Source: Pseudogymnoascus verrucosus (Eukaryota). From it: DNA of 60,494 nt. A program made the translations under genes and the position numbers. The stretch lies in assembly GCA_001662655.1 (NCBI GenBank), contig KV460263.1; one strand, given 5' to 3'. The notes beneath the pieces are model-generated. The model was given only the letters and a program-made list of their open reading frames with translations, had not been told where the DNA came from and made no database searches. The stretch's first letter is position 1; each line of letters starts with the position of its first letter. Below are positions 7,706-9,080 of this stretch, piece after piece.

Positions 7706-8293
7706 TGTAGAACATAGGTTTAGATTGCCTCTTGATTCTAATTTTATAGGTCTAGTGTTACGGCTCACCCCGCTATTAGCGCCAGGCAAGGGATTGGAGG
7801 AGGAGGCACGATTAGGAAACCAAGGTCATTGGTCGAATAAGGAATATGAGACATGGGACCACGTGACACGATCCTCGAAGGATCCAGGATCGTATAAGTA
7901 TCACCTAGGGATCGTCTGGGTAGCAGACGGAATCGATTTGGCACGACGCCACTATATAAGTAGATAGTTAGTTCTTAGATAGAAGCTTCGTGTTCAACTC
8001 AATACAGTATTTGTTATATACTAGTAACGTGTTTTATGAAAGCCTTTGTGTCTGATCCCCTGCCTCCTCTGATAAGTAAACTACGCAACGAAACCTCTGT
8101 GTGTCTTATACGTTTAAGACCCAGCGTTACACTAAACTTCAGTCTAACGTGAAAGTAACGTAAAAATGACACGAGAAGTTCACTCCGCCCTATTATGCTC
8201 ACCCTGCTTACCCTTAGCTTCACTCTTTAAAGCGGCAAGGGGCTAAAATTACAGGCAATGCCTACTGGCATGATTGAGAGTATAGAGCGAGTA

Positions 8294-8359
8294 GATTACA
8301 AGCTTGTGTATAGCAGAGTGGATGGGATGCCCAATTCTCTTAAGTCTATGGTCATATGT
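8294..8359 (-). pseudogene. Truncated 5S rRNA gene (5' ~66 nt only), RIP-mutated
   Basis: The minus strand reads ACATATGACCATAGACTTAAGAGAATTGGGCATCCCATCCACTCTGCTATACACAAGCTTGTAATC. This matches the ascomycete 5S 5' half (ACATACGACCATAGAC..AAGAGAATTGGGCATCCCGTCCGCTCTGCCATACACAAGCTT) with C>T/G>A changes. The 3' half (TTAGTAGTTGGGTGGGTGACC...) is absent. Confidence 0.85.
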
Positions 8360-9080
8360 ATTCGTTCCTCTACTAGGATGGTATACATCTGTTTTCCCCA
8401 TTAAATCCATATAAATCCCACTAAAACTTTTAACAAACTGGCTAACGGCATGAGATATGCAACAAACATAATTTAGAAACAACAGAGAAGTTGAGAGCTC
8501 ATTTTCCGTTTACTGTCTATATACTCCTACCGCGAACAAGCCCGGAGAGGGATCATGCGTAATAAAGAGTGCTTTCGGTGATTATAGTTCAATTGAAGGC
8601 GCTCAATCACTCAGGGTGCCTTTCAAAGACTCACTGTGAATCAAAGTTAAAGAAAACGGAAAGAGGCTCTATTAGCTCGAGTTTCCAGCATCAATACTTA
8701 CCTCTGCACAGTTCTTCTTCCCATTTTTGGGCGGCAGGAGTGCGTTTACCTTCTGCCTCATTCCCATGTCCTTCTTCACTCACGACCTGTCTTTCTGTTT
8801 GTTGTCCTGTTTGTTCGTTCGCTCTACCAGTGCTCACCGTTTGCTTCCCCTCTTTCTTTCCTGCCTCACCTTTGTCCACTCTGTGATATATAACTTGCGT
8901 AGAGCTCGGCATCCCTTCCTCTTCTGATCATAACGAAAATCTTCCCATCCAGCAGACAATCTCCCATCTTGGCCAGCTGTCACATTCGACCCCAGCCACC
9001 CCAACAATCCCGCAACTATTCAGCAACTCCCGCCCATCCAGCAACCTTCCTGCATAGACACCGACAGAAAACTCACCGAA

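Follow-up and report, generated by a model that had tools for sequence, protein, structure and literature searches.

A truncated 5S rRNA gene marks the border between a lineage-restricted block and core genes in Pseudogymnoascus verrucosus

The stretch of Pseudogymnoascus verrucosus DNA that we analysed (the window, 60,494 nucleotides) begins with an AT-rich, lineage-restricted block (1..7915), in which GC content is 0.38-0.47 up to position 7000 and the genes are confined to few Pseudogymnoascus strains. The block carries a DUF7689 gene recognised by Pfam (2334-3270, plus strand), two paralogous genes of unassigned function (4797-3999, minus; 5786-6631, plus; 29% identity, E=1e-6) with a 63-nt tandem array between them (5140-5717), and, as its last gene, the F-box protein gene VE01_09716 (6899..7510, minus; 100% identity over 81% of the ORF, with the start at 7510 placed by eye). 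Searches with the F-box protein returned only 4 protein clusters and those with the ORF at 5786-6322 only 3, all from Pseudogymnoascus. The right flank has a GC content of ~0.50-0.58 and carries core genes, among them those for an MFS transporter, Far11/STRIPAK, Sec16, a flippase, a PAK kinase, a class II tRNA synthetase and a Brix protein. A GPI-anchored protein gene also lies on this core side (10198..10863, plus; its protein cluster contains VE01_09718), and its protein matches 75 proteins at E<=0.001, among them proteins of no fewer than 13 named Pseudogymnoascus strains, of other Leotiomycetes and of Aspergillus. Some of the strains with this gene yielded no match to either the F-box protein or the 5786-6322 protein. 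An earlier reading of the window from its letters alone (the original prediction) had placed unusual genes and a repeat array to the left and ordinary, conserved genes to the right, and both composition (38-47% versus ~50-58% GC) and gene distribution (genus-limited versus core) bear this out. For a DUF3402 ORF, a protein atlas search returned the family name only and no informative taxon.

Between the two parts lies the 5' part of a 5S rRNA gene (nt 1-65; 8295..8359, minus strand), in which the invariant nt 6, 37 and 41 have undergone GC>AT transitions. With filters off, nhmmer matched positions 8359-8295 to nt 1-65 of the fungal 5S rRNA gene (48.6 bits, E=2.6e-14), the profile having been made from four true 5S genes of full length (L006, L007, L008 and L010, each scoring 72.5-75.8 bits against RF00001). 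This was the one match in the 120,988 bases of the window searched, the next best reaching only E=2.8, and the same search found no 5S 3' half on either strand of the window. By blastn, 8299-8359 is identical to a true gene, L001, at 56 of 61 positions and 85-90% identical to the ten other loci that we collected; under lenient scoring the match to a further locus, L004, spans 66 nt (8294-8359, 84.8%). Homology begins exactly at 5S nt 1 and fades after nt 61-66, beyond which the sequence is unrelated; in these alignments nt 1-61 (8299-8359) are secure and nt 62-66 weak. The minus-strand sequence of the relic from 8359 downward starts ACATATGACCATAG. Set by eye against A. fumigatus 5S heads from PMC5063351, which were chosen independently, it shows 41 identities in 59 positions, and 9 of the 18 mismatches are GC>AT. 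The proposal that a minus-strand 5S gene (8359-8294) is cut after ~66 nt, with unrelated sequence beyond, has thus held up. A short match resembling the 5S 3' end (7224-7208, 15/17, E=16) was rejected as chance, lying inside the coding frame of the F-box gene.

True 5S genes for comparison were gathered by scanning metagenome contigs with a pattern made of nt 1-47 of the fragment and tolerant of RIP-type changes, which yielded 11 loci. Seven of the 11 reach the Rfam 5S threshold, four of them full length (72.5-75.8 bits) and three cut by contig ends; the remaining four are three that run into a contig end still earlier in the gene and L004, which is interrupted. In L004, a true 5S gene from related fungi, the gene breaks off after about nt 78 at an inserted element that has MULE, MuDR DNA-binding and SWIM domains. 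Ordinary transposons do split 5S genes of these fungi (1/11 loci). This Mutator-like element has no similarity to the window.

Membership of RF00001 entails a full length of ~120 nt, a three-helix junction and a gathering score of at least 38 bits, and the relic falls short of these. The original prediction had proposed this model as a check on the fragment, and the check came back empty, with no match at gathering on the whole window nor at E<=10 on 7800-8900 and 8230-8380 (151 bases). We attribute this silence to the model being blind to a mutated half gene, and not to an absence of 5S. The relic has homology to true 5S genes from nt 1 onward, but with only nt 1-65 present it is a gene fragment and not a gene. 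A practical lesson is that half 5S genes are invisible to the Rfam model and visible to a clade-specific sequence profile.

The relic differs from L001 at five positions (nt 6, 18, 37, 41 and 48), all C>T or G>A, three of them in CpG and two in CpA context. Four of the five lie within nt 1-47, where the search pattern permitted only such changes and the bias is circular; nt 48 lies outside the pattern and is hence the only independent GC>AT observation among them. At nt 18 and 48 the T is also found in the true gene L007. The changes at nt 6, 37 and 41 are private to the window, fall on residues invariant in 11/11 loci and are all in CpG context. RIP indices of 8001-9000 are outside the RIP range, while two clear RIP islands, whose ORFs fall below the length suited to a Pfam scan, lie at 55-56 kb and 59-60.5 kb, and under the length limits of RIP given in PMC5555474 a 120-nt gene would alone be too short to trigger it. 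The earlier description of the fragment as RIP-type mutated stands insofar as all 5 changes are GC>AT; the process itself is unproven, with a partly circular pattern and local indices outside the RIP range.

Directly beyond the cut lies low-copy DNA (8132..8294) belonging neither to 5S nor to any high-copy family, and covered in relatives by 1-2 contigs at single-copy depth (X4 record 15, depth 20.8, spanning 8047-10752; X5 record 21, depth 27.5, spanning 8048-8301). No other copy of it was found within the window, even with transitions collapsed, nor did these 163 nt match any of the fetched 5S loci. Next to it, 163 nt from the cut, is a 195-nt fragment of a dispersed high-copy repeat of an unclassified family (7937..8131, minus), which is 86% identical over 198 columns to 59720-59524, a partner sitting inside a RIP-type island. 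Contig depths in relatives add up to 1600-2870 at 8023, compared with 20-40 in single-copy DNA, and several contigs per run have loose ends at 7937 and 8081. A search of the window with purine/pyrimidine k-mers for RIP-degraded hidden copies of 7600-8450 recovered only this known pair (7937-8133 and 59.5-59.7 kb).

No transposon terminus, target-site duplication or transposase remnant was found at the cut, and among inverted repeats around 7500-8500 no terminal-repeat pair frames it. A direct repeat (8259-8273 and 8439-8453) was considered as a target-site duplication and rejected, its 12/15 matches being of chance quality. Upstream of the relic, the 80 nt scored within shuffles against the upstream regions of 8/11 true loci, and for the other three 4-12 of 300 shuffles reached the observed score. 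A TATA-like GTATAC at -28 was likewise set aside as a sign of 5S promoter homology, the upstream likeness not exceeding shuffles overall.

Public runs sharing words with 3800-12800 comprised two at 0.96-0.97 and several at 0.55-0.66, and four of the partial-share runs, from four studies (X3, X4, X5 and X18), were aligned to window positions 1-20000. The left block (1-7915) is present at the same place in 4/4 of these relatives, on single-copy contigs with 98.9-99.2% identity. One contig of X3 bridges the left and right parts, and contigs of X4 and X5 span the cut junction itself (X4 record 15, X5 record 21); being common to these relatives, the junction is old. In a fifth strain, VKM F-4519, the F-box and GPI-protein genes carry the neighbouring locus tags V501_03322 and V501_03323 on one contig. 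An empty site with an intact 5S gene, sought in relatives as the original prediction had suggested, was found in 0/4 genomes, which are only 1-3% apart, such that an element fixed in their ancestor would look alike in all of them. That prediction had itself named syntenic left genes without an intact 5S as evidence against it, and this is the arrangement that we observe in the tested relatives, at their divergence of only 1-3%.

The segment that includes the relic and the repeat fragment (7753..8391) is structurally variable. In X3, 6995-7753 and 8391-17127 lie on a single contig (record 11), separated by 771 other letters instead of the 637 of the window, and in X5 a joint between opposite strands (7898|8294) reuses the 5S breakpoint at 8294. 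Summed depth is very high only at 7937-8081 and 8299-8359. At the second of these peaks, each related genome has 7-21 contigs that part from the window at 8359/8360, and contigs also peel off at 8299, positions that are the limits of the 5S alignment; past 8359 the departing contigs share a consensus (GATAGTTATT...) that is similar, at 19/30 positions by eye, to the block conserved upstream of true 5S genes. Because its limits match those of 5S homology and its consensus is upstream-like, this peak is the 5S gene family, of which the relic is one member. Nine X18 contigs depart from the window at 8299, and the consensus of their long loose ends is not the 5S 3' half. Taken with the X5 joint at 8294, these ends hint at possible recurrent breakage at nt 61-66, a pattern that would better fit a site-specific agent.

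The two sides of the relic also differ in how far they have diverged from the four relatives, by 0.85-1.13% in the left block and 1.65-2.87% in the right flank (ratio 1.9-3.0, p = 7e-6 to 3e-19), a contrast drawn without a genome-wide baseline, so that either side could be the odd one.

We conclude, with some though by no means strong confidence, that the relic is probably an ordinary truncated 5S pseudogene, in which the 5' half of one copy from the dispersed 5S family of P. verrucosus survives as dead sequence. A 5S gene would formerly have stood in the intergenic DNA that separates the F-box gene from the gene that follows, until insertion of an ordinary transposable element there, or a linked rearrangement, broke it after nt 61-66. 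Subsequent deletions and rearrangements would have removed the 3' half and most of the element, leaving as remnants the low-copy stretch and the 195-nt repeat fragment, and the relic would then have gained its GC>AT transitions, either through RIP leaking from the neighbouring repeat or through CpG deamination. Both the order of these events and the cutting agent are what we infer. TFIIIA needs the part of the internal control region that lies downstream of 5S nt 66, and the relic, which is missing that part, is predicted to be without function. We favour ordinary disruption because it is in keeping with the debris of repeats and with the variable structure of 7753-8391; replaced in X3 and rearranged in X5, this segment has the look of a decaying transposon scar. 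Against such a break, the cut falls at a sharp change in composition, gene conservation and divergence, where a random break would not be expected, the cut lacks a transposon terminus, duplication or transposase remnant, and the X18 and X5 contigs hint at a recurrent breakpoint.

An alternative that we consider unlikely, though the best placed of the competing explanations, is that the cut is the edge of a Starship or another giant site-specific element. The ancestor of the P. verrucosus group would have acquired a large cargo-carrying element at about nt 61-66 of this 5S gene, with window positions 1-8294 as its distal end and the captain and the 5S 3' half further left, outside the window. 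The underlying premise, that some Starships insert into dispersed 5S genes and split them, is sound in the sources consulted: in the data of PMC11162782, 5S rDNA holds 23% of 222 curated insertion sites, at no fewer than five distinct internal positions; Voyager cuts 20 bp from the 5S start (PMC9156397); and Osiris elements fragment 5S genes in A. fumigatus (bioRxiv 10.1101/2024.06.28.601215). What keeps weight on this explanation is the position of the cut at a border where composition, gene distribution and divergence all change and the AT-rich block, with genes found in only 3-4 clusters, all from Pseudogymnoascus, gives way to core genes. The block, which is 1.9-3.0 times less divergent between relatives than the right flank, would supply within the window at least 7.9 kb of candidate cargo, made up of AT-rich, lineage-restricted genes of low between-strain divergence. 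A block protein is 91% identical in VKM F-4520, where it lies on another contig than the best GPI-protein match (67%), although the GPI family has paralogues and the contrast of 91% with 67% is a weak calibrator.

According to the starfish tables, Pseudogymnoascus genomes hold 5-33 captain-type genes each, with one delimited element in 21 genomes, and P. verrucosus itself is listed with 8 Starship-type recombinase genes and 0 delimited elements (tables S3/S8, PMC11162782). Two of these genes, of family 8 (Moya), are placed on scaffold KV460266 at 4.8-5.7 kb (minus) and 58.6-60.2 kb (plus); if KV460266 were the window's contig, the second would face the relic from ~72 kb. The text searched states no target site for family 8. 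A more specific form of this explanation, which we hold to be less probable still, takes the relic to be the distal junction left where a giant Starship, at least ~74 kb in size and by now fixed throughout the P. verrucosus group, integrated at nt 61-66. Its AT-rich cargo might then be younger than its surroundings through spread between Pseudogymnoascus lineages, and the family-8 recombinase at 58.6-60.2 kb would be a candidate for its captain, should KV460266 prove to be the window's contig. The position nt 61-66 is not among the Starship 5S target positions found in print.

Several observations weigh against a Starship. A Pfam scan of the window's ORFs (>=40 aa in 1-8600, >=80 aa to 14000 and >=110 aa beyond) found no DUF3435 captain, as the original prediction had remarked, nor any other Starship hallmark, and none of the accessory gene families that are frequent on Starships. 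The window also lacks the 5S 3' half, the block occupies this site in 4/4 relatives and, by locus tags, in VKM F-4519, and none of these relatives showed an empty site. Nor is the junction clean, since repeat debris and the variable segment adjoin it, and the unusual side of the divergence contrast may be the right as well as the left. Our literature search linked Starships to Pseudogymnoascus in nothing beyond one review. The suggestion that ~8294 is the tail end of a large element is therefore left divided, with the landscape border, the low left divergence and the 8 recombinase genes of the species in its favour, and the missing captain, 3' half and empty site against it.

Unlikely too, and ranking below a giant element, is a small mobile element, either a SINE3-like or template-switch chimera with a head of nt 1-61, or an element targeting nt 61-66 of which the relic is the upstream junction. 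In AfuSINE3 of Aspergillus fumigatus and SINE3-1_AO of A. oryzae, as presented in PMC5063351, heads of 5S nt 1-64 are followed by unrelated bodies, and the cut position of these heads (nt 64) is almost that of the relic. The upstream 80 nt, not significantly like true 5S upstreams (8/11 loci within shuffles), and the nine X18 contigs that diverge at 8299 into non-5S sequence would also suit such an element, and this explanation keeps some weight because of the hints of a recurrent breakpoint. Its would-be body (8132-8298) is, however, found in only 1-2 contigs at single-copy depth in relatives, a low copy number by which the relic is not the head of a repeated SINE. Of the features that define SINE3, the 5S head is present, and a shared multi-copy body, a target-site duplication and a 3' tail are not, the sole flanking direct repeat being the chance-quality one noted above. 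There is no reverse transcriptase or 5S 3' half within 8.3 kb, and by eye the sequence shows no likeness to the AfuSINE3 bodies printed in PMC5063351. Finally, a chance 5S likeness in AT-rich intergenic DNA, to which the empty Rfam search at E<=10 on 151 bases might be thought to point, has next to no probability and is, on the nhmmer and blastn matches, already refuted: the match at E=2.6e-14 stands against a runner-up in the window at E=2.8, the 56/61 identity to a true gene starts exactly at nt 1, and the 47-letter pattern taken from the fragment fetched 11 loci of which 7 are at the Rfam 5S threshold, 3 are cut by contig ends and 1 is interrupted.

As a truncated 5S pseudogene the relic would be ordinary, such relics being common in filamentous fungi, and its value would be that of a marker for the border between a lineage-restricted, AT-rich, little-diverged block and core genes. 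The genus Pseudogymnoascus includes the pathogen of bat white-nose disease. Were the relic a Starship edge, the element would be the first delimited in P. verrucosus, with a new 5S target position, and the low divergence of the block would be explained by inter-lineage transfer; if it is not, the locus counsels caution, as half a 5S gene beside odd genes is insufficient to call a Starship.

Four known systems offer points of comparison. L004 shares with the relic a true 5S of the same sequence type, an internal cut and unrelated DNA thereafter, and differs in that MULE, MuDR DNA-binding and SWIM domains within 2 kb reveal its agent, whereas in the window no agent is left. With 5S-targeting Starships the relic has in common a dispersed 5S gene cut internally, accessory-looking DNA from the cut onward and a host genus rich in captain-type genes; here, in contrast, no captain, second 5S half, direct repeat or empty site was seen. 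By our own reading of table S1, the 5S-derived direct repeats of Starships fall near nt 9-14, 34-39 and 76-81 and at the 3' end, compared with nt 61-66 for the relic's cut, and one unannotated Starship repeat (AAGCC) would fall near 5S nt 55-59.

AfuSINE3 and SINE3-1_AO, as described in PMC5063351, likewise keep 5S nt 1-64 before unrelated sequence and, like the relic, have poorly kept promoter boxes, but they form families of several copies with shared body parts, whereas the sequence that follows the relic is low-copy and has neither tail nor duplication; the hosts also belong to different classes, Leotiomycetes for the relic and Eurotiomycetes for the two SINEs. The system that corresponds to our preferred reading is that of the truncated 5S pseudogenes of filamentous fungi, in which 18-83% of 5S sequences are pseudogenes, truncated ones included (Rooney and Ward 2005, as cited in PMC5555474). 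As in the accounts given there, the relic belongs to a dispersed family with many dead copies, and it has no intact coding sequence and carries GC>AT transitions. It differs from such pseudogenes in standing exactly at the border between a lineage-specific block and core genes, and in having a breakpoint that is reused in the alternative arrangement of a relative.

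Comparing the window with contigs assembled from sequencing runs of four related genomes, we found that the left block (1-7915) differed from the window by 0.85-1.13%, versus 1.65-2.87% for the core flank (8047-20000). In all four genomes, the gene-poor, AT-rich left block is less diverged than the gene-dense core flank, which is the opposite of what would be expected from constraint alone. Such low divergence could mean that a sweep, introgression or transfer has recently affected the left block; the contrast between the two sides could also arise from a right flank that is itself unusually diverged.

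Within the left block, the coordinates of the relatives' contig records against the window yielded two length differences present in all four relatives, with ~267 additional letters at ~1137 and ~162 at ~2017-2020; these differences stem either from small insertions gained by the relatives or from letters deleted in the window strain. The block also carries two genes of unknown function that are distantly paralogous (29% identity, E=1e-6); they are divergently oriented at 3999-4797 (minus strand) and 5786-6631 (plus strand) and separated by a tandem array of ~9 copies of a 63-nt unit (5140-5717). An in-frame stop at 6320-6322 in the right-hand paralogue could be intronic or a sign of a pseudogene. 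Its homologue in Pseudogymnoascus strain VKM F-4520 is 91% identical and has a precomputed assignment to family PF27136, a family that the Pfam scan performed here did not report.

The small segment surrounding the 5S relic (8359-8295, minus strand) has undergone differing rearrangements among these close relatives. In one genome (run X5), a single-copy contig links 7898 with 8294 on opposite strands, such that the joint falls on the exact 5S breakpoint (8294), and a second contig from the same run covers 8048-8301 in the window arrangement. In another (run X3), the region 7753-8391 is replaced by 771 different letters. Further half-5S copies ending at the same nucleotide (8299) may exist in related genomes: in run X18, nine contigs match the window over 8299-8359 and then diverge for at least 255 nt, and the consensus of the sequence beyond 8299 in these contigs is not the 3' half of a 5S gene (agreement of 0.56).

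Repeat-associated features were also observed at greater distances from the relic. At 17041-17170 lies a further small dispersed repeat: each of the four runs covers this short stretch at ~3-fold single-copy depth, and all assemblies break there. Two RIP islands with strong signatures occur at 55001-56000 (TpA/ApT of 2.14; (CpA+TpG)/(ApC+GpT) of 0.47) and at 59001-60494 (1.84 and 0.45, respectively), the second extending to the end of the window at 60494, which is probably the contig end as well.

Among the 11 metagenome loci carrying true 5S genes, a block of ~40 nt immediately 5' of the gene start was strongly conserved in 9 (...TATAT..CTTCCGATAAGCAAGTAATTATC), presumably constituting an external promoter element. 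Most of this block is absent from two loci, L005 and L001, the latter being the true 5S gene most similar to the relic in the window. At one of the 11 metagenome loci (L004, contig positions 1-2047), a Mutator-like DNA transposon splits the true 5S gene after ~nt 78, with MULE, MuDR DNA-binding and SWIM domains residing within 2 kb on the opposite strand.
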